Shown here one piece after another: positions 1 through 31,079 of a stretch of DNA of 37,294 nucleotides. Numbering within the stretch: the first letter of the stretch is position 1; every line of letters begins with the position of its first letter. A model generated the notes under the pieces. It did not search any database. It had not been told where the DNA came from and worked only from the letters and a program-made list of their open reading frames with translations. The translations under genes were made by a program, and so were the position numbers. This DNA comes from a virus (taxonomy: Duplodnaviria; Heunggongvirae; Uroviricota; Caudoviricetes), in IMG/VR virus record IMGVR_UViG_2711768034_000003; one strand, given 5' to 3'.

Positions 1-214
1 TTCTGAGCAATTCAGTAATGTCACTCTTTTCTTTGTTTGCTTCAGGCGAAACTCTTTTTTCTGAGCACAGTCTTCGGCGGCAGGCTTCAATGACCCAGGC
101 TGAGAAATTCCCAGACCCTTTTTGATCAAGAGCGATGTTAATTTGTTCAATCATTGGGTTAGGAAAGCGGATGTTGCGGGTTGTTGTTCTGCGGGTTCTG
201 TTCTTCGTTGACAT
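1..214 (-). CDS. YlcI/YnfO-family (DUF3950) small prophage protein; 3' end lies beyond the left window edge
   Basis: Reverse-strand ATG at 212-214; translation MSTKNRTRRTTTRNIRFPNPMIEQINIALDQKGSGNFSAWVIEACRRRL... runs off the window. This family typically sits just upstream of cos/terminase in lambdoid prophages. Confidence 0.55.
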   Translation of the reverse strand, partial: MSTKNRTRRTTTRNIRFPNPMIEQINIALDQKGSGNFSAWVIEACRRRLCSEKRVSPEANKEKSDITELLR

Positions 215-389
215 GAGGTTGCCCTGTATTCAGTGTCACTGATTTGTATTGTCTGAAGTTGTTTTTACGTTAAGTTGATGCAGATCAATTAATACGATAC
301 CTGCGTCATAATTGATTATTTGACGTGGTTTGATGGCGTAGATGCACGTTGTGACATGTAGATGATAATTATTATCATTTTGCGGGTCC

Positions 390-600
390 TTTCCGGCGAT
401 CCGACAGTTTACGGGGCGGCGACCTCGCGGGTTTTCGCTATTTATGAAAATTTTCCGGTTTAAGGCGTTTCCGTTCTTCTTCGTCATAACTTAATGTTTT
501 TATTTAAAATACCCTCTGAAAAGAAAGGAAGCGACAGGTGCTGAAAACGGGCTTTTTGGCCTCTGTCGTTTCCTTTCTCTGTTTTTATCCGTGGAATGAA
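390..600 (+). promoter_or_regulatory. cos: lambda-type cos site (cosQ/cosN/cosB); 12-nt cohesive end GGGCGGCGACCT at 414-425
   Basis: Sequence ...CGACAGTTTACGGGGCGGCGACCTCGCGGGTTTTCGCTATTTATGAAAATTTTCCGG... matches the joined right/left ends of lambda; lies immediately upstream of nu1 as in lambda. Confidence 0.9.
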
Positions 601-602
601 CA

Positions 603-1122
603 ATGGAAGTCAACAAAAAGCAGCTGGCTGACATTTTCGGTGCGAGTATCCGTACCATTCAGAACTGGCAGGAGCAGGGAATGCCCGTTCTGCGAGGCGG
701 TGGGAAGGGTAATGAGGTGCTTTATGACTCTGCCGCCGTCATAAAATGGTATGCCGAAAGGGATGCTGAAATTGAGAACGAAAAGCTGCGCCGGGAGGTT
801 GAAGAACTGCGACAGGCCAGCGAGACAGATCTCCAGCCAGGGACTATTGAGTACGAACGCCATCGACTTACGCGTGCGCAGGCCGACGCACAGGAGCTGA
901 AAAATGCCAGAGACTCCGCTGAAGTGGTGGAAACCGCATTCTGTTCTTTCGTGCTGTCGCGGATCGCAGGTGAAATTGCCAGTATTCTCGACGGGATCCC
1001 CCTGTCGGTGCAGCGGCGTTTTCCGGAACTGGAAAACCGACATGTTGATTTCCTGAAACGGGATATCATCAAAGCCATGAACAAAGCAGCCGCGCTGGAT
1101 GAACTGATACCGGGGTTGCTGA

Positions 1123-1148
<26 letters not shown>
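603..1148 (+). CDS. nu1: terminase small subunit Nu1
   Basis: 181-aa ORF MEVNKKQLADIFGASIRTIQNWQEQGMPVLRGGGKGNEVLYDSAAVIKWYAERDAEIENEKLRREVEELRQ... recognised as lambda gpNu1; position directly after cos. Confidence 0.96.
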
Positions 1149-4829
<3,681 letters not shown>

Positions 4830-4849
<20 letters not shown>

Positions 4850-6149
4850 TCTCCCGCATATTGCCAGCATGGCTTTTAATGAGCCGCTGATGCTTGAACC
4901 CGCCTATGCGCGGGTTTTCTTTTGTGCGCTTGCAGGCCAGCTTGGGATCAGCCGCCTGACGGATGCGGTGTCCGGCGACAGCCTGACTGCCCAGGAGGCA
5001 CTCGCGACGCTGGCATTATCCGGTGATGATGACGGACCACGACAGGCCCGCAGTTATCAGGTCATGAACGGCATCGCCGTGCTGCCGGTGTCCGGCACGC
5101 TGGTCAGCCGGACGCGGGCGCTGCAGCCGTACTCGGGGATGACCGGTTACAACGGCATTATCGCCCGTCTGCAACAGGCTGCCAGCGATCCGATGGTGGA
5201 CGGCATTCTGCTCGATATGGACACGCCCGGCGGGATGGTGGCGGGGGCATTTGACTGCGCTGACATCATCGCCCGTGTGCGTGACATAAAGCCGGTATGG
5301 GCGCTGGCCAATGACATGAACTGCAGCGCAGGTCAGCTGCTTGCCAGTGCCGCCTCCCGGCGTCTGGTCACGCAGACCGCCCGGACAGGCTCCATCGGCG
5401 TCATGATGGCTCACAGTAATTACGGCGCTGCACTGGAGAAACAGGGCGTGGAAATCACGCTGATTTACAGCGGCAGCCATAAGGTGGATGGCAACCCCTA
5501 CAGCCATCTACCGGATGATGTCCGGGAAACATTGCAGTCCCGGATGGATGCAACCCGCCGGATGTTTGCACAGAAGGTGTCGGCATATACCGGCCTGTCC
5601 GTGCAGGCTGTGCTGGATACCGAGGCTGCAGTGTACAGCGGTCAGGAGGCCATTGATGCCGGACTGGCTGATGAACTTGTCAACAGCACCGATGCGATCA
5701 CCGTTATGCGTGATGCACTGGATGCACGTAAATCCCGTCTCTCAGGAGGGCGAATGACCAAAGAGACTCAATCAACAACTGTTTCAGCCACTGCTTCGCA
5801 GGCTGACGTTACTGACGTGGTGCCAGCGACGGAGGGCGAAAACGCCAGCGCGGCGCAGCCGGACGTGAACGCGCAGATCACCGCTGCGGTTGCGGCAGAA
5901 AACAGCCGCATTATGGGGATCCTCAACTGTGAGGAGGCTCACGGACGCGAAGAACAGGCCCGCGTGCTGGCAGAAACCCCCGGTATGACCGTGGAAACGG
6001 CCCGCCGCATTCTGGCAGCTGCACCACAGAGTGCACAGGCGCGCAGTGACACTGCGCTGGATCGTCTGATGCGGGGGGCACCGGCACCGCTGGCTGCAGG
6101 TAACCCGGCATCTGATGCCGTTAACGATTTGCTGAACACACCAGTGTAA
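4830..6149 (+). CDS. C: capsid assembly protease / minor capsid protein gpC (S49-type)
   Basis: GTG start at 4830 overlapping the B 3' end by 20 nt as in lambda; translation (M)TAELRNLPHIASMAFNEPLMLEPAYARVFF... 439 aa. The 484-aa ORF in the track is an upstream extension in the same frame. Confidence 0.9.
5544..6149 (+). CDS. nu3: scaffolding protein Nu3 (in-frame internal start within C)
   Basis: ATG at 5544 in the C reading frame (MDATRRMFAQKVSAYTG...), same arrangement as lambda nu3 nested in the C 3' end. Confidence 0.75.
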   Translation: MDATRRMFAQKVSAYTGLSVQAVLDTEAAVYSGQEAIDAGLADELVNSTDAITVMRDALDARKSRLSGGRMTKETQSTTVSATASQADVTDVVPATEGENASAAQPDVNAQITAAVAAENSRIMGILNCEEAHGREEQARVLAETPGMTVETARRILAAAPQSAQARSDTALDRLMRGAPAPLAAGNPASDAVNDLLNTPV

Positions 6150-6158
6150 GGGATGTTT

Positions 6159-6491
6159 ATGACGAGCAAAGAAACCTTTACCCATTACCAGCCGCTGGGC
6201 AACAGTGACCCGGCTCATACCGCAACCGCGCCCGGCGGATTGAGTGCGAAAGCGCCTGCAATGACCCCGCTGATGCTGGACACATCCACCCGTAAGCTGG
6301 TTGCGTGGGATGGCACCACCGACGGTGCTGCCGTTGGCATTCTTGCGGTTGCTGCTGACCAGACCAGCACCACACTGACGTTCTACAAGTCCGGCACGTT
6401 CCGTTATGAGGATGTGCTCTGGCCGGAGGCTGCCAGCGACGAGACGAAAAAACGGACCGCGTTTGCCGGAACGGCAATCAGCATCGTTTAA
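6159..6491 (+). CDS. D: head decoration protein gpD
   Basis: [52 protein letters not shown]... 110 aa, lambda gpD. Confidence 0.95.
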
Positions 6492-6512
6492 CTTTACCCT
6501 TCATCACTAAAG

Positions 6513-6536
6513 GCCGCCTGTGCGGCTTTTTTTACG
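6513..6536 (+). terminator. GC hairpin plus T-tract between D and E (attenuator or partial terminator)
   Basis: GCCGCctgtGCGGC followed by TTTTTTT. Confidence 0.4.
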
Positions 6537-6546
6537 GGATTTTTTT

Positions 6547-7572
6547 ATGTCGATGTACACAACCGCCCAGCTGCTGGCGGCAAATGAGCAGAAATTTAAG
6601 TTTGATCCGCTGTTTCTGCGTCTCTTTTTCCGTGAGAGCTATCCCTTCACCACGGAGAAAGTCTATCTCTCACAAATTCCGGGACTGGTAAACATGGCGC
6701 TGTACGTTTCGCCGATTGTTTCCGGTGAGGTTATCCGCTCCCGTGGCGGCTCCACCTCTGAATTTACACCGGGATATGTCAAGCCGAAGCATGAGGTGAA
6801 TCCGCAGATGACCCTGCGTCGCCTGCCGGATGAAGATCCGCAGAATCTGGCGGACCCGGCTTACCGCCGCCGTCGCATCATCATGCAGAACATGCGAGAC
6901 GAAGAGCTGGCCATTGCTCAGGTCGAAGAGATGCAGGCCGTTTCTGCCGTGCTCAAGGGCAAATACACCATGACCGGTGAAGCCTTCGATCCGGTTGAGG
7001 TGGATATGGGCCGCAGTGCGGCGAACAACATCACGCAGTCCGGCGGCACGGAGTGGAGCAAGCGTGACAAGTCCACGTATGACCCGACCGACGATATCGA
7101 AGCCTACGCGCTGAACGCCAGCGGCGTGGTGAATATCATCGTGTTCGATCCGAAAGGCTGGGCGCTGTTCCGTTCCTTCAAAGCCGTCAAGGAGAAGCTG
7201 GATACCCGTCGCGGCTCTCATTCCGAGCTGGAGACAGCGGTAAAAGACCTGGGCAAAGCGGTGTCCTATAAGGGAATGTATGGCGATGTGGCCATCGTCG
7301 TGTATTCCGGACAGTACGTGGAAAACGGCGTCAAAAAGAACTTCCTGCCGGACAACACGATGGTGCTGGGGAACACTCAGGCTCGCGGTCTGCGCACCTA
7401 TGGCTGCATTCAGGATGCGGACGCACAGCGCGAAGGCATTAACGCCTCTGCCCGTTACCCGAAAAACTGGGTGACCACCGGCGATCCGGCGCGTGAGTTC
7501 ACCATGATTCAGTCAGCACCGCTGATGCTGCTGGCTGACCCTGATGAGTTCGTTTCCGTACAACTGGCGTAA
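6547..7572 (+). CDS. E: major capsid protein gpE
   Basis: MSMYTTAQLLAANEQKFKFDPLFLRLFFRESYPFTTEKVYLSQIPGLVNMALYVSPIVSGEV... 341 aa, lambda gpE. The track ORF starts 27 nt upstream, but the lambda start is at 6547. Confidence 0.95.
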   Translation: MSMYTTAQLLAANEQKFKFDPLFLRLFFRESYPFTTEKVYLSQIPGLVNMALYVSPIVSGEVIRSRGGSTSEFTPGYVKPKHEVNPQMTLRRLPDEDPQNLADPAYRRRRIIMQNMRDEELAIAQVEEMQAVSAVLKGKYTMTGEAFDPVEVDMGRSAANNITQSGGTEWSKRDKSTYDPTDDIEAYALNASGVVNIIVFDPKGWALFRSFKAVKEKLDTRRGSHSELETAVKDLGKAVSYKGMYGDVAIVVYSGQYVENGVKKNFLPDNTMVLGNTQARGLRTYGCIQDADAQREGINASARYPKNWVTTGDPAREFTMIQSAPLMLLADPDEFVSVQLA

Positions 7573-8388: not shown

Positions 8389-8967
8389 ATGGCCATAAAA
8401 GGTCTTGAGCAGGCCGTTGAAAACCTCAGCCGTATCAGCAAAACGGCGGTGCCTGGTGCCGCCGCAATGGCCATTAACCGCGTTGCTTCATCCGCGATAT
8501 CGCAGTCGGCGTCACAAGTTGCCCGTGAGACAAAGGTACGCCGGAAACTGGTAAAGGAAAGGGCCAGGCTGAAAAGGGCCACGGTCAAAAATCCGCAGGC
8601 CAGAATCAAAGTTAACCGGGGGGATTTGCCCGTAATCAAGCTGGGTAATGCGCGGGTTGTCCTTTCGCGCCGCAGGCGTCGTAAAAAGGGGCAGCGTTCA
8701 TCCCTGAAAGGTGGCGGCAGCGTGCTTGTGGTGGGTAACCGTCGTATTCCCGGCGCGTTTATTCAGCAACTGAAAAATGGCCGGTGGCATGTCATGCAGC
8801 GTGTGGCCGGGAAAAACCGTTACCCCATTGATGTGGTGAAAATCCCGATGGCGGTGCCGCTGACCACGGCGTTTAAACAGAATATTGAGCGGATACGGCG
8901 TGAACGTCTTCCGAAAGAGCTGGGCTATGCGCTGCAGCATCAACTGAGGATGGTAATAAAGCGATGA
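8389..8967 (+). CDS. Z: tail completion protein gpZ
   Basis: 192-aa ORF MAIKGLEQAVENLSRISKTAVPGAAAMAINRVASSA...; lambda Z. Confidence 0.93.
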   Translation: MAIKGLEQAVENLSRISKTAVPGAAAMAINRVASSAISQSASQVARETKVRRKLVKERARLKRATVKNPQARIKVNRGDLPVIKLGNARVVLSRRRRRKKGQRSSLKGGGSVLVVGNRRIPGAFIQQLKNGRWHVMQRVAGKNRYPIDVVKIPMAVPLTTAFKQNIERIRRERLPKELGYALQHQLRMVIKR

Positions 8968-9359
8968 AACATACTGAACTCCGTGCAGCCGTACTGGATG
9001 CACTGGAGAAGCATGACACCGGGGCGACGTTTTTTGATGGTCGCCCCGCTGTTTTTGATGAGGCGGATTTTCCGGCAGTTGCCGTTTATCTCACCGGCGC
9101 TGAATACACGGGCGAAGAGCTGGACAGCGATACCTGGCAGGCGGAGCTGCATATCGAAGTTTTCCTGCCTGCTCAGGTGCCGGATTCAGAGCTGGATGCG
9201 TGGATGGAGTCCCGGATTTATCCGGTGATGAGCGATATCCCGGCACTGTCAGATTTGATCACCAGTATGGTGGCCAGCGGCTATGACTACCGGCGCGACG
9301 ATGATGCGGGCCTGTGGAGTTCAGCCGATCTGACTTATGTCATTACCTATGAAATGTGA
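8964..9359 (+). CDS. U: tail tube terminator protein gpU
   Basis: 131-aa [57 protein letters not shown]...; lambda U; ATGA overlap with Z. Confidence 0.93.
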
Positions 9360-9366
9360 GGACGCT

Positions 9367-10107
9367 ATGCCTGTACCAAATCCTGTAATGCCGGTGAAAG
9401 GTGCCGGGACCACCCTGTGGGTTTATAAGGGGAGCGGTGACCCTTATGCGAATCCGCTTTCAGACGTTGACTGGTCGCGTCTGGCAAAAGTTAAAGACCT
9501 GACGCCCGGCGAACTGACCGCTGAGTCCTATGACGACAGCTATCTCGATGATGAAGATGCAGACTGGACTGCGACCGGGCAGGGGCAGAAATCTGCCGGA
9601 GATACCAGCTTCACGCTGGCGTGGATGCCCGGAGAGCAGGGGCAGCAGGCGCTGCTGGCGTGGTTTAATGAAGGCGATACCCGTGCCTATAAAATCCGCT
9701 TCCCGAACGGCACGGTCGATGTGTTCCGTGGCTGGGTCAGCAGTATCGGTAAGGCGGTGACGGCGAAGGAAGTGATCACCCGCACGGTGAAAGTCACCAA
9801 TGTGGGACGTCCGTCGATGGCAGAAGATCGCAGCACGGTAACAGCGGCAACCGGCATGACCGTGACGCCTGCCAGCACCTCGGTGGTGAAAGGGCAGAGC
9901 ACCACGCTGACCGTGGCCTTCCAGCCGGAGGGCGTAACCGACAAGAGCTTTCGTGCGGTGTCTGCGGATAAAACAAAAGCCACCGTGTCGGTCAGTGGTA
10001 TGACCATCACCGTGAACGGCGTTGCTGCAGGCAAGGTCAACATTCCGGTTGTATCCGGTAATGGTGAGTTTGCTGCGGTTGCAGAAATCACCGTCACCGC
10101 CAGTTAA
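9367..10107 (+). CDS. V: major tail tube protein gpV (with C-terminal Ig-like domain)
   Basis: [67 protein letters not shown]... 246 aa; lambda V. The track ORF begins 30 nt upstream. Confidence 0.94.
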
Positions 10108-23919: not shown

Positions 23920-24862
<943 letters not shown>

Positions 24863-27088: not shown

Positions 27089-27134
27089 ATTCGTAATGCG
27101 AAGGTCGTAGGTTCGACTCCTATTATCGGCACCA
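27089..27134 (+). other. 3' fragment of a tRNA-Thr(CGU) gene (anticodon loop to CCA); att-like core, not a complete tRNA
   Basis: ATTCGTAATGCGAAGGTCGTAGGTTCGACTCCTATTATCGGCACCA matches the 3' part of enterobacterial thrW-type tRNA-Thr; the 5' acceptor strand GCCGATA is absent upstream. Confidence 0.8.
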
Positions 27135-27411: not shown

Positions 27412-28461
27412 ATGGAAAAGGAATTACAGCTCAAAGCTGATGAACAAATAAAAGCATACTCCAAAAAAATAGATTTTTACACCTCAGAATATACTGTAGA
27501 AATACTTGCACAAAAAGTAAGAGCTGGCGAATATACAGTCCCTGCATATCAACGTGAGTATACTTGGGATGAACCAAGAAAATGTAAATTTATTGAGTCG
27601 CTAATCATAGGTCTTCCTATTCCATTCGTATTTTTCTGGATGAATGACGATACCGGAAAACTAGAAATTGTTGATGGTTCGCAGCGGCTTAGAACCATTG
27701 AAGAATATTTTAATAATCGTTTAACCCTTGATGGGCTAGAGCGTTTGGATCTTCTTAATGGTACAAGATTTGAAGATTTACCATTAGCACGCCAAAGAAA
27801 AATTTTAAATAAATCTATCCGGGGAATAATACTATCCGAAGATACAGATATGGAAGCAAGGGTTGATTTATTTGAAAGGATAAATACAGGCAGTAAAGTT
27901 GCTAATCCTGCTGAGGTTAGACGCGGTGTTTTACGTGGTCCATTTATGGATTTAATCAATGAATTGGCTGCTAATCAACTGTTTATTAAACTAGCGCCTG
28001 TTTCTGCAAAGCAAAAAAAAGAACGAGAGCCAGAAGAACTAGTAACTAGATTTTTTGCATACTCCGATGGTCTTGACGGATATAGAGATGATGTATCAGC
28101 ATTTATATTTAGATATATAAAGCGAATGAATGAGTTGTTCGAGGAGGATGCAGCTCTGGCTCAACAATATAGAGATCGCTTTTCTCGAATGTTAGCATTC
28201 GTAGAACAAAGTTTCCGTCTCGGATTTAAGAAAACAGTAAAAGGTACAACGACACCACGTGCTCGTTTCGAGTCCATTGCGATAGGCTCGCATTTAGCAT
28301 TAGAAATTAATGGTTCGCTCCAAGTAACTAAGGAACAAACTGACGAAATATTAGAAAGCGATTCCTTTAAAGCTGAAATTCGATCTGATGGCGCTAACGC
28401 AATAAGAAGATTGCAGGGAAGAATTGGTTATATTAGAGATGCTCTTTTAGAGAGGGCTTGA
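27412..28461 (+). CDS. DUF262 / ParB-like nuclease-domain protein (GmrS-like N-terminal domain family)
   Basis: ATG at 27412 with GAGG SD 6 nt upstream (track ORF starts 15 nt earlier). Signature YTVPAYQREYTWDE...LEIVDGSQRLRTIEEYF characteristic of DUF262. Confidence 0.8.
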   Translation: MEKELQLKADEQIKAYSKKIDFYTSEYTVEILAQKVRAGEYTVPAYQREYTWDEPRKCKFIESLIIGLPIPFVFFWMNDDTGKLEIVDGSQRLRTIEEYFNNRLTLDGLERLDLLNGTRFEDLPLARQRKILNKSIRGIILSEDTDMEARVDLFERINTGSKVANPAEVRRGVLRGPFMDLINELAANQLFIKLAPVSAKQKKEREPEELVTRFFAYSDGLDGYRDDVSAFIFRYIKRMNELFEEDAALAQQYRDRFSRMLAFVEQSFRLGFKKTVKGTTTPRARFESIAIGSHLALEINGSLQVTKEQTDEILESDSFKAEIRSDGANAIRRLQGRIGYIRDALLERA

Positions 28462-28463
28462 TC

Positions 28464-29189
28464 ATGCAACTAGTAAAAGATGTTTTTGATGAAAGAGTTG
28501 CTGATATCGAGAGCTATTTTGAATTGGTGAATAATGTTGAGCTTGCAATTGGCTCTGGAGGAGCGATATTCAGTGTTAATGGGACGCAATACCAAATAAA
28601 TCCTGATCAGCAGAAGATAATGTATTCTGGAATATATCTACATTTGTATAATTTGGTCGAATCGACGATCTCTATGTTAATAGATGCTGTCGAACGGCAT
28701 GCGGCGCAAGGAATTAATGGACAACTGGTTCTACTAACTGAAAACATGAAGAAGCTGTATGTTAAATCTGTAGCAGCTCCTTTTGAATCAATAAATAATG
28801 ATTTACGGTTAGAGAAGGCGTTAGAACTATTTGACCAAGTATTAAATATAAAGCCTCTTGAACTTAGGATCCCGCCGGGAGGCGGAGGTAATTGGGACTT
28901 AAAAGAAATAGAGAGGATAAGTAAGAGTATAGGTGTTGATGTCACTCTTCCCAGAGCGCTTAGGGCAAAGGTAAATGCTCCATTTAGAGACGATAAAGGA
29001 CCTATTCGGCTAGTTAAAGAAATAAGAAACAAATTAGCTCATGGTTCTCTTTCATTTACACAATGTGGTACGAACCATGTAGCCAGTGATTTTAGGCGGT
29101 TGATTGATATAGTCAAAGAATACTTAGCCCATATAATCCGATCTTATGAAAACTTCATAACCGCACAAGGTTATAAGATTGCACAATGA
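28464..29189 (+). CDS. HEPN-like domain protein (R-x4-H motif), translationally coupled to the DUF262 gene
   Basis: ATG at 28464, 2 nt after the DUF262 stop, with AGAGGG SD inside the upstream gene; C-terminal EIRNKLAHGSLSF fits the HEPN Rx4-6H motif; 241 aa. Confidence 0.65.
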   Translation: MQLVKDVFDERVADIESYFELVNNVELAIGSGGAIFSVNGTQYQINPDQQKIMYSGIYLHLYNLVESTISMLIDAVERHAAQGINGQLVLLTENMKKLYVKSVAAPFESINNDLRLEKALELFDQVLNIKPLELRIPPGGGGNWDLKEIERISKSIGVDVTLPRALRAKVNAPFRDDKGPIRLVKEIRNKLAHGSLSFTQCGTNHVASDFRRLIDIVKEYLAHIIRSYENFITAQGYKIAQ

Positions 29190-29192
29190 TAT

Positions 29193-30257
29193 TTATTTGG
29201 CCAAGGACGTAATTATACTTTGGCCAATAATCTCTCCTAACTTGACCGGAACTGCATTTCCGATCATTTTAGCTAATGTAGCTACGCTTAGCGGGTTTTC
29301 GTCATCATGAAACTTATAAGCTAAAGGAAATGATTGTAGTAATGCAGCCTCCCTTAGACTGATCGCTCGATCTTGCACAGGATGCCCAAATCTACCATTC
29401 CCATAACCATTACATTGAGTAGTAATTGTTGGTGATGGCTCATCCCATGTCATCCGTCCATAAACACTTGGATAAGTTTTTCCTGTCATTTTCTTATGGC
29501 AGCTAGCCCTTAGTTCTTCCGGCCAATCCAGCCAAGAACCGCCAGGTTTTGAATATTGAATCCGCTTTAAGTTTATAGGGCTTAGAATTGACGAGCGATG
29601 TATAGGATCAACCTTATCCTTTTCGCCTGCTGTTATGCGAGGAAGATGCTCAATCGCATCTCTTACAGTGACATATTTATCTGCAGTATGCGTAGCTGGT
29701 ATTATTGATATCTCGCTAACTTTTGATGCGATTAATACTAATCTTTTTCGCGTTTGAGGGATTCCATAATCAGGACAAAATACGATTTTATAATCAAATG
29801 AATAACCGTTATGCCGAAGAGTTGCTAAAAACGCATTAAATACTCCCTGTTCTGCCAAGCCAGGAACATTTTCCATTGTAACGAAATCAGGAGTGATCTC
29901 ATTGATCAGGCGCCCAAAGCTTTCCAGAAGGTTCCATCGTTTGTCAGGAGAAGTAGTTCGTTTTATATTTGCTCTGGAATATGTTGAGAAGGGTTGGCAA
30001 GGTGCACATCCAGCAAGGAGGGTGTAATCGCCGCCAGCCAGATACTTTGCTACATCATTTCCTGAAAGATGAGTTACATCTTGTTTTATAAATCTGGCGT
30101 TGTTATTGATTTCATACGCATAACGACAAGATTCCTCGATATCATATCCGGCGGTCACGGATATGCCTGAACGCTGGAGACCATGCGTTAGCCCCCCGGC
30201 TCCACAAAAAAGATCCACTGCCTTAATTTTTGTATGATTTTTCAACGTAAACCTCAC
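29193..30257 (-). CDS. DNA (cytosine-5)-methyltransferase
   Basis: Motif I DLFCGAGG, motif IV GCAPCQPFS (PCQ), ENV, QTRKR, and GNAVPV all present in canonical order. Start is GTG at 30257 or, more likely, TTG at 30245 preceded by a GAGG SD. Convergent with the HEPN gene, 3 nt apart. Confidence 0.9.
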   Translation of the reverse strand: MRFTLKNHTKIKAVDLFCGAGGLTHGLQRSGISVTAGYDIEESCRYAYEINNNARFIKQDVTHLSGNDVAKYLAGGDYTLLAGCAPCQPFSTYSRANIKRTTSPDKRWNLLESFGRLINEITPDFVTMENVPGLAEQGVFNAFLATLRHNGYSFDYKIVFCPDYGIPQTRKRLVLIASKVSEISIIPATHTADKYVTVRDAIEHLPRITAGEKDKVDPIHRSSILSPINLKRIQYSKPGGSWLDWPEELRASCHKKMTGKTYPSVYGRMTWDEPSPTITTQCNGYGNGRFGHPVQDRAISLREAALLQSFPLAYKFHDDENPLSVATLAKMIGNAVPVKLGEIIGQSIITSLAK

Positions 30258-30821: not shown

Positions 30822-31079
30822 TTACTTTTGTTTATTAAACCATGCCTCATGTAGCTCTTGCAGTTTCACCCAAAAAGATGCATCTGTATTGAAAATTATC
30901 GAGAGTTGAATAGCTTCTTCAAGAGTTATATTTCGCTCATTTTTAATTATTTCCCAAATTTTTTCATATGATGTATCCATCAGTTCAGCAAGTCTTGCGG
31001 GAGGCATATCCAATGGTTTCAAGAATTCTTCGTATAAAATCTCTCCGACAGTTGAAGGTGCAGCATTTATTGTCCTCAT
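30822..31079 (-). CDS. HigA-family antitoxin-like XRE HTH protein (orphan; no adjacent toxin ORF)
   Basis: 85-aa ORF with ...TVGEILYEEFLKPLDMPPARLAELMDTSYEKIWEIIKNERNITLEEAIQLSIIFNTDASFWVKLQ... matching the HigA/VapI addiction-module antidote pattern; strong SD AAGGGGGGG upstream of the ATG at 31079. Confidence 0.7.
   Translation of the reverse strand: MRTINAAPSTVGEILYEEFLKPLDMPPARLAELMDTSYEKIWEIIKNERNITLEEAIQLSIIFNTDASFWVKLQELHEAWFNKQK

Follow-up and report, generated by a model that had tools for sequence, protein, structure and literature searches.

Operons that join a HEPN protein to a ParB-superfamily protein and a DNA methylase have been on record since Anantharaman, Makarova, Burroughs, Koonin and Aravind listed a MAE_28990 HEPN, ParB nuclease and DNA methylase operon in Table 1 of their 2013 study (Biol Direct 8:15). 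That record is a single table line, without distribution, conservation, structure or experiment. Makarova et al. (2013) described DUF262/COG1479 domains as often joined to HNH, PD-(D/E)xK or HEPN domains and as linked to DNA-modification systems. Two systems from Escherichia coli with similar components protect their hosts from phages (Vassallo et al., 2022; PMC9519451). PD-T4-2 of strain ECOR65, annotated as “DUF262, HEPN” and 1,540 bp long, is active against T4 both when cloned and in the native strain, and its HEPN domain was assigned to PF18735 in a review (PMC10952713). PD-lambda-5 of strain ECOR7, annotated as “ParB/HEPN, methyltransferase,” gave the broadest protection in the authors' panel, could be cloned only in a strain lacking mrr, and was described by them as a compacted system of restriction-modification (R-M) and abortive infection (PMC9519451). 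Here, we analyzed a 37,294-nucleotide (nt) stretch of DNA from a virus of the class Caudoviricetes (IMG/VR record IMGVR_UViG_2711768034_000003; the whole stretch is referred to as the window), which carries three adjacent genes of this kind: gene A, encoding a DUF262 protein (P1); gene B, encoding a HEPN protein of the MAE_28990 family (P2); and gene M, encoding a C5 cytosine DNA methyltransferase (MTase; P3). An initial annotation of the window had presented them as an undescribed module, which is too strong a term given the 2013 table and the two validated analogs.

The trio is inherited and exchanged as a unit

To determine how strictly the three genes keep together, we searched species-representative genomes with an alignment of HEPN homologs. 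This returned 80 loci, whose six-frame open reading frames (ORFs) were searched with the three window proteins. All three genes lay side by side in each of the 76 loci that were not cut by a contig end; in the other four, the contig ends next to the HEPN gene. In these 76 loci, the HEPN gene is directly preceded by the gene for a DUF262 ortholog (E values of 1e-59 to 1e-164) and has an orthologous C5 MTase gene (1e-101 to 1e-173) next to it. The loci span at least 10 phyla (Pseudomonadota, Actinomycetota, Cyanobacteriota, Bacteroidota, Planctomycetota, Chloroflexota, Acidobacteriota, Verrucomicrobiota, Lentisphaerota, Nitrospirota, and Myxococcota). One 2.7-kb contig labeled as a Flavobacterium psychrophilum metagenome-assembled genome (QFQM01000424.1, locus L009) is 96% identical to the E. 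coli cassette at the DNA level; it is probably a mis-binned enterobacterial contig and should not be counted as evidence for Bacteroidota. Remote HEPN relatives detected by tblastn (24 to 35% identity) also keep the trio, in five plasmid or phage loci: the Rhodococcus plasmids pRB98 and pDJL2, the Rhizobium tumorigenes plasmid pTi932, the P2-like coliphage P24B2, where the cassette adjoins a replication gene, and the Moraxella phage Mcat24. The MTases of these remote trios matched P3 at E values of about 1e-128, and the frameshifted copy of P24B2 at 1e-68.

The genes are also tightly packed. Sixty-one loci have the order DUF262, HEPN, MTase in one direction, eight have a convergent MTase gene as in the window, five have the MTase gene first, and two are disrupted. 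A start codon overlaps the DUF262 stop codon or lies within 6 nt of it in 72 of 78 loci, and the MTase start codon overlaps the HEPN stop codon in 52 of the 61 one-directional loci. At the A/B junction of the window (AGAGGGCTTGATCATG, which reads AGAGGG-CTTGA-TC-ATG), the gene A stop codon TGA (28459-28461) is followed by the gene B ATG at 28464, with a Shine-Dalgarno-like sequence inside the end of gene A. Genes B and M converge at a distance of 3 nt, between the HEPN TGA (29187-29189) and the complement of the MTase stop codon (TTA, 29193-29195). Microcoleus sp. CAN_BIN18 has approximately 1.3 kb between its HEPN and MTase genes (locus L037, positions 2673-4014), and these genes abut or overlap in all of the related cyanobacterial loci. 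A promoter and terminator scan of the window from 26.9 to 31.3 kb found no more sites than in shuffled sequence (10 promoter-like sites, against 13.6 expected).

We then clustered 514 flanking ORFs and found no fourth gene among them that was universal to the cassette. The commonest neighbor, and the sole recurrent one across distant taxa, is a vsr gene, which adjoins the cassette in 10 of the 80 loci and also on pTi932; the remaining clusters reflect synteny between close relatives. Integrases, ParA, and relaxase genes come next in frequency, and housekeeping genes occur as well. Because no fourth gene is universal and the neighbors vary, the unit is a compact three-gene cassette, sometimes accompanied by vsr, which moves between very different contexts. 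The three proteins diverge in a correlated way (Spearman coefficients of 0.69 to 0.79 between their pairwise identities), and the linkage of the trio is far beyond chance. The three genes are thus inherited and exchanged together. The initial annotation had taken them for one functional module and had proposed a search for their co-occurrence in other genomes; the strict co-conservation in 76 of 76 contig-complete loci, the translational coupling, and the correlated divergence all bear this idea out.

Two loci have noteworthy genes nearby. On the Rhodococcus plasmid pDJL2, a gene for a TIR-domain protein is located immediately downstream of the cassette (locus L093, positions 6238-7170), a rare defense-type neighbor outside E. 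coli. Paraburkholderia sp. SG-MS1 has a second, divergent stand-alone DUF262 gene of 354 codons 2 kb upstream of the cassette DUF262 gene (locus L086, positions 2873-3937), whose product matches Pfam GmrSD_N at 3.6e-20 and P1 only at 3e-15.

For conservation, we aligned 66 complete orthologous trios together with the window copy, giving 67 sequences. The median identity of the orthologs to the window proteins was 55% for the DUF262 protein, 34% for the HEPN protein, and 54% for the MTase, and no MTase ortholog fell below 49% in any phylum. R188 and H193 of the HEPN protein and Cys87, ENV, and RxR of the MTase are present in 67 of 67 sequences, and the QR and DGxQR motifs of the DUF262 protein are kept in 66. 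The HEPN motifs RNxLAHG, LYNLVE, and GGNW are also conserved, the latter two without exception. When compared with the closest divergent copy, synonymous and nonsynonymous codon differences numbered 13 and 4 in the HEPN gene and 20 and 2 in the MTase gene. These patterns show that the predicted catalytic sites of all three proteins are under purifying selection.

Predicted functions of the three proteins

The ORFs, the spacing of genes A and B, the Shine-Dalgarno sequence, and the 3-nt convergent gap are as the initial annotation had described them, and every motif that it quoted was found in the three translations. RefSeq names the products “DUF262 domain-containing protein,” “MAE_28990/MAE_18760 family HEPN-like nuclease,” and “DNA cytosine methyltransferase,” and Pfam returned the same three domains that the initial annotation had assigned.

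P1, which contains the sequences YQREYTW and IVDGSQRL, matches the Pfam GmrSD_N/DUF262 model at 3e-24. It is a stand-alone protein with a ParB/Srx-fold NTPase domain carrying the DGxQR motif and a C-terminal helical domain of the kind that the authors of PMC12065111 named ParBDB and predicted to bind DNA. The best structural matches to a confident AlphaFold 2 model of P1 (predicted local distance difference test score [pLDDT] of 85) were BrxU, SspE, and DndI, and BrxU was the closest solved structure. With their nuclease domains, these enzymes have 560 to 594 residues, whereas P1 has 349 and is thus about 230 residues shorter. No DUF1524 domain was found in P1 by Pfam, even at E values of up to 10, and no nuclease fold was found among the structural matches. 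The model thus shows gene A to encode the predicted fold of the modification-sensing DUF262 NTPases BrxU, SspE, and DndI without their HNH/DUF1524 nuclease. Because of its length, the lack of DUF1524, and the lack of a nuclease-fold match, P1 appears to correspond to the sensor/NTPase and helical parts of these enzymes, with no effector, and we propose by analogy that it senses the methylation state of DNA. Pfam and structural matches therefore agree with the earlier proposal that P1 is the sensor/NTPase half of GmrSD/BrxU/SspE-type enzymes.

Sixteen PADLOC families matched P1. The Menshen protein NsnA scored higher (1e-58, profile positions 32-372 of 385) than PD-T4-2_A (PDLC04027; 8.8e-31, positions 56-355 of 363). 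PDLC03418, a “Type II restriction enzyme” model of 372 positions, matched only the DUF262 region of P1 (residues 49-185; 5.7e-10) and matched the DUF262 homolog of P24B2 at 8.9e-7; a REBASE-derived “Type II REase” family thus carries a DUF262 domain. A search for the DUF262 family returned 2,987 clusters, and the top 120 all have lengths of about 350 amino acids (aa); no source gives any of these 120 a name beyond “DUF262 domain-containing.” In PHROGs, P1 falls into phrog_2598 (4e-101) and P2 into phrog_3846 (3e-34), neither of which has an assigned function.

P2 matches the Pfam model PF18737 (HEPN_MAE_28990) over positions 7-211 of 211 with 41.1 bits, above the gathering score of 26.8 (E value, 2.9e-10), and its EIRNKLAHG sequence holds an Rx4H motif (R188-NKLA-H193). 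A search of 1.84 billion representatives at E values of up to 1e-3 gave 603 HEPN clusters at 50% identity, nearly all of them stand-alone proteins of about 240 aa; the family is thus uniform and of modest size. By profile match and motif conservation, gene B is shown to encode a putative stand-alone HEPN protein with an invariant Rx4H motif. No PADLOC model matched P2 at E values of up to 0.01, and at up to 10 there was only a marginal hit to RTasHEPN (0.041). Since it lacks a model for this HEPN protein, PADLOC v2-type annotation leaves the cassette unreported.

P3 matches Pfam DNA_methylase (PF00145; 1e-56) and TIGR00675 (dcm; 1.6e-36). Its sequences DLFCGAGG, GCAPCQPFS, ENV, QTRKR, and GNAVPV include motifs I (FCGAGG), IV (PCQ), VI (ENV), VIII (QxRxR), and X (GNAVP), which are conserved in the orthologs. 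The region between motifs VIII and IX of C5 MTases is normally the variable target-recognition region. In the cassette enzymes, 40 of its 96 positions are at least 97% conserved, compared with 42 of 197 in the N-terminal catalytic part. Because conservation in the target-recognition region equals or exceeds that in the catalytic core, we infer that the motif written is probably identical, or nearly so, in all members of the cassette. Among solved structures, the nearest relatives (DNMT1, M.HaeIII, and M.HhaI) match P3 mainly in the catalytic core and motifs IX and X and not in the central recognition region. The Vsr endonuclease repairs T:G mismatches left by deamination of 5-methylcytosine (m5C), and its frequent presence beside the cassette fits real m5C production.

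Two MTase genes carry a single-base frameshift, each in a short base run, next to intact genes A and B. In E. coli UGDI01000002 (locus L004, positions 8730-9790), a run of five A residues has become six at window position 29826; this record may derive from an error-prone long-read assembly. In phage P24B2 (LR595873; locus L089, positions 2024-3065), the frame changes near residue 240, near a KPGG codon run, and both halves of the MTase are still well conserved. Sequencing error, recent decay, or phase variation could each account for these frameshifts.

Genomic setting in E. coli

The cassette occurs in only 4 of 5,426 complete E. coli genomes, with 99.9% identity, and the exact HEPN protein of the window is on record in 818 blocks of a larger assembly collection. 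Positions 1 to approximately 21000 of the window hold a lambda-like prophage module for structural proteins, which runs from the terminase to tail protein J, has 55 to 61% GC, and is 97% identical to Escherichia phages Chlobot and PhiR70_1. This module is followed by tail-fiber genes, a PD-T4-3 gene, an AraC-family gene, an IS3 integrase remnant, a tRNA-Thr (thrW) fragment, and the island with the cassette. The positions of these features are collected in the table.

Table. Features of the cassette and its surroundings, with positions in the window
Feature	Positions	Strand	Remarks
Gene A (P1), DUF262 protein	27412-28461	+	349 aa; a longer reading from 27397 gives 354 aa; the RefSeq ATG is 27412
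Shine-Dalgarno-like AGAGGG for gene B	28451-28456	+	inside the end of gene A; read from the sequence
Gene B (P2), HEPN protein, MAE_28990 family	28464-29189	+	241 aa
Gene M (P3), C5 cytosine DNA methyltransferase	29193-30257	-	354 aa; RefSeq start 4 codons later, 350 aa
3' 43 nt of tRNA-Thr (thrW), att repeat, left edge of the cassette island	27090-27132	+	match to annotated tRNA-Thr in NZ_CP145099
PD-T4-3, GIY-YIG protein	23921-24817	-	298 aa; PADLOC PDLC04031, 4e-135; Pfam LEM-3-like GIY-YIG, 2.8e-14
HigA-family antitoxin gene	30822-31079	-	TIGR02607, 2e-18

The initial annotation had placed the cassette in AT-rich DNA after an att-like tRNA-Thr fragment, with an orphan HigA-like gene nearby, and each of these points was recovered. 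The GC content is 0.37 to 0.40 over 27 to 31 kb. The thrW fragment differs from the tRNA-Thr of NZ_CP145099 by one mismatch near its 3' end, and ARAGORN detected no complete tRNA in the window. The HigA-like gene has no ORF for a HigB toxin upstream. As a possible component of the cassette, it was rejected, being absent from the flanks of the loci outside E. coli and lacking a HigB partner.

The lambda-like prophage and the island appear to have integrated in tandem at thrW, with the tRNA-Thr fragment between them. In E. coli PS_131_S11, the same island directly follows proA and an intact thrW, continues with genes for HigA, TraJ/NikA, TrbJ, and TrbL, and ends at an integrase beside a tRNA-Ser fragment. 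Based on the conjugation genes, the terminal integrase, and the tRNA fragments of this island, the cassette resides on a decayed integrative mobilizable element. In another E. coli record, JBFOAV010000008 (locus L003, positions 1-6256), the same island has as its immediate left neighbor a P4-like satellite with primase, Psu, and Ogr/Delta genes; the satellite holds two adjacent reverse transcriptase genes (425 and 672 aa, RVT_1), which are further defense-type cargo of the thrW hotspot.

PD-T4-3 is a validated single-gene antiphage system; it is encoded 2.6 kb upstream of the cassette, among the accessory genes with which the prophage ends on the right. The term “defense island,” which had been applied to this region, is therefore appropriate for the E. 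coli locus; it does not hold elsewhere, where a Pfam scan of 146 flanking ORFs revealed heterogeneous flanks that include housekeeping genes, and a defense island at all loci was rejected.

Proposed mechanism and relation to known systems

The cassette is very probably an antiphage system in which methylation serves to mark self DNA. On balance, we think it somewhat probable that it is a mobile three-gene defense unit with R-M-like logic, in which the restriction arm consists of a sensor and an RNase and the outcome is methylation-gated abortive infection. According to this proposal, the MTase would mark host DNA with m5C at a single fixed motif. Protein A would bind DNA and use its NTPase cycle to read the mark; by analogy with DndI, NTP hydrolysis would be stimulated by the self mark, and A would be freed from self DNA. 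On unmethylated incoming phage or plasmid DNA, A would stay engaged and activate or de-inhibit its coupled partner B, which would then cut RNA (tRNA, rRNA, or mRNA) and halt translation, so that the infection would be aborted or growth would stop. Like ordinary R-M systems, a cassette working in this way would be addictive to its host and would help to keep its carrier mobile elements stable.

Several published systems provide precedents for these steps. In IscS-DndBCDE-DndI, the phosphorothioate self mark stimulates the DUF262 ATPase, DndI leaves self DNA, and unmarked phage DNA is attacked (PMC11662687). In the “recognize-hydrolyze-activate” scheme of SspE, recognition of the mark, GTP hydrolysis, and licensing of the nuclease are coupled (PMC13251355). 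HEPN RNases have been proposed to act together with R-M systems (PMC3710099), and PD-T4-2 and PD-lambda-5 confer phage protection on E. coli (PMC9519451). The initial annotation had suggested an R-M-like system or a hybrid of restriction and abortive infection, which the present analysis supports and which is the same as the proposals in the literature for such architectures. We regard the module as robust and the hybrid reading, which matches published predictions, as reasonable.

A number of observations weigh against methylation-gated abortive infection. The RNase activity of P2 is an assumption taken from the HEPN superfamily, and no solved relative was detected when the HEPN alignment was searched by profile against PDB sequences (best E value, 0.5). 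Because the single-sequence AlphaFold 2 model of P2 was unusable (pLDDT of 39), it was discarded and not used for a fold search, and it is the Pfam match and the Rx4H motif that point to the HEPN fold. The reading of methylation by A and the interaction of A with B are likewise steps drawn from analogy, and no experimental study of a trio of DUF262, HEPN, and C5 MTase was found in the literature searched. The MTase gene comes last in most phyla, which is awkward if A and B kill as soon as the cassette enters a new host whose DNA is not yet methylated. GmrSD and BrxU, the DUF262 enzymes known best, attack modified and not unmodified DNA. Finally, if the two MTase frameshifts are real, A and B are tolerated on unmethylated self DNA, which would weaken a simple R-M logic.

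The abutting, convergent layout of the R and M genes in the window is typical of R-M systems, and together with the PDLC03418 match to the DUF262 region of P1 it would suit a Type II-like system with a back-up. Here, the DUF262/ParB-fold protein itself would cut or nick unmethylated sites, and the HEPN protein would be a second line similar to PrrC/EcoPrrI, an RNase kept inactive by the R-M proteins and freed when a phage neutralizes them; indeed, Anantharaman et al. (2013) called the partner a “ParB nuclease” and proposed a PrrC-like model for HEPN genes in R-M operons (PMC3710099). We consider this unlikely, since the solved DUF262 enzymes cut with a separate HNH/DUF1524 domain (PMC13251355 for the HNH domain of SspE), which is absent from P1, and the conserved residues of P1 are the NTP-binding QR and DGxQR motifs. 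Moreover, the HEPN gene is present in every complete locus, which would be unexpected for an optional back-up.

Strict three-way linkage would also be needed by a selfish addiction module, in which the methylase is the antidote, the DUF262 and HEPN proteins are the poison causing postsegregational killing, and phage defense is incidental. The carriers of the cassette would fit such a module (a tRNA-linked island with remnants of conjugation genes and an integrase, a Ti plasmid, Rhodococcus plasmids, a P2-like phage, and Moraxella prophages), as would the insertion of a compact unit into varied contexts. However, the validated analogs were isolated by their phage-defense phenotype (PMC9519451), and the two frameshifted MTase genes with intact A and B, if real, speak against strong killing upon loss of methylation. 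We give this explanation little credence, noting that addiction and defense are not exclusive, that many R-M systems do both, and that addiction is compatible with either methylation-gated abortive infection or a Type II-like system. A Type IV-like function, in which the DUF262 protein senses modified phage DNA and the linked methylase is otherwise employed (in protection from another enzyme or in epigenetic regulation), is highly improbable: BrxU is the closest solved structure to P1, and reviews assign sensing of modified DNA to the DUF262 domains of GmrSD and BrxU, with Dazbog suggested as a further case (PMC10952713), but an m5C sensor beside an m5C writer would be self-destructive, and such a function would leave unexplained why every complete locus has one orthologous MTase, conserved in its recognition region, and why this MTase is translationally coupled in 52 of 61 one-directional operons.

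A broader idea, which we put forward tentatively and with more doubt than conviction, is that methylation-gated abortive infection of this kind constitutes a widespread “epigenetic abortive-infection” class of its own, in which a nuclease-less ParB/DUF262 NTPase reads methylation and a HEPN RNase answers on RNA, with a single m5C motif from Actinomycetota to E. coli phages. If so, the cassette, possibly together with PD-lambda-5, would form a distinct class beside R-M Types I to IV and would offer a simple two-protein model of a DUF262 sensor signaling to a separate effector.

To our knowledge, DUF262 proteins are common in defense, and their mechanism is known only where they are fused to a DNA nuclease of their own (GmrSD, BrxU, SspE, and DndI). 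The cassette is a minimal and uniform case for studying how nuclease-less DUF262 proteins such as those of PD-T4-2, Menshen, and Dazbog signal to a separate effector, with one sensor, one effector, one writer of the self mark, and hundreds of natural variants. Copies are native to E. coli and a P2-like coliphage, so it should be easy to test in a standard host. If an RNase effector is gated by DNA methylation, self/nonself discrimination of the R-M kind can drive abortive infection. The m5C that the cassette probably writes would also matter for cloning, methylome interpretation, and phage therapy in carrier strains.

Of the validated systems, PD-T4-2 shares the DUF262 and HEPN pair, and P1 matches the PD-T4-2_A model over its full length. 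In contrast to the cassette, with its orthologous C5 MTase in every complete locus, PD-T4-2 has no methylase; its HEPN protein is much smaller (both genes fit into 1,540 bp), and P2 has no PD-T4-2_B match. Judged by these profile matches, the cassette is related to PD-T4-2 via protein A only. PD-lambda-5 combines the same three kinds of domain (ParB superfamily, HEPN, and DNA methylase). However, it has a ParB-HEPN fusion of about 500 aa with a weak HEPN signal where the cassette has two genes, its N terminus is a canonical ParBc domain rather than DUF262 (HHpred probabilities of 96% and 37%, respectively), and PD-lambda-5B is a Dam-like N6-adenine MTase (MethyltransfD12, PF02086), whereas P3 is a C5 enzyme. 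No PD-lambda-5 model was among the 16 PADLOC families matching P1, and none matched P2. At the level of these models, PD-lambda-5 thus appears analogous and not homologous to the cassette.

P1 shares the N-terminal DUF262 domain and DGxQR motif of GmrSD, BrxU, SspE, and DndI but lacks their C-terminal DUF1524/HNH (His-Me) domain, and the cassette is therefore no member of this group. In SspABCD-SspE and IscS-DndBCDE-DndI, the mark is phosphorothioate rather than m5C, and SspE and DndI act on DNA through a fused effector, an HNH/DUF1524 nickase or nuclease, whereas the effector of the cassette would be its separate HEPN protein. For BrxU and GmrSD, which attack DNA that is modified, there is no linked writer. 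Menshen (NsnABC; Millman et al., 2022; Bell et al., NAR 2025) is closer with respect to P1, which is NsnA-like over its full length with ParB-DUF262 and ParBDB parts. The 2025 paper proposes this combination as a DNA sensor and speculates that methylase-linked DUF262 proteins “may target non-modified genomes” (PMC12065111). However, the gene downstream of P1 encodes a HEPN protein and not the NsnB ABC/OLD-type ATPase or the NsnC effector, and neither an NsnB nor an NsnC gene was found in the flanks of the related loci, so the cassette is no member of Menshen. No Dazbog (DzbA, DzbB) model was among the PADLOC matches of P1 or P2. With classical Type II R-M systems, the cassette shares an MTase with the full catalytic motif set, from which methylation itself is predicted; as for a partner endonuclease that would cut unmethylated DNA at the same site, P1 has no recognized nuclease fold, and the “REase_II” model matches it in the DUF262 region only, as described above.

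The cassette is a full member of the MAE_28990/ParB/methylase operon class: P2 scores above the PF18737 threshold, carries the Rx4-6H motif, and has ParB-superfamily and methylase neighbors. Beyond the 2013 record, the strict linkage of the genes, the conservation in the recognition region of the MTase, the association with Vsr, and the phage and plasmid copies are new, as is the model-based assignment of the DUF262 partner as a putative nuclease-less sensor. What sets the cassette apart is its strict three-gene conservation and an apparently single MTase specificity.

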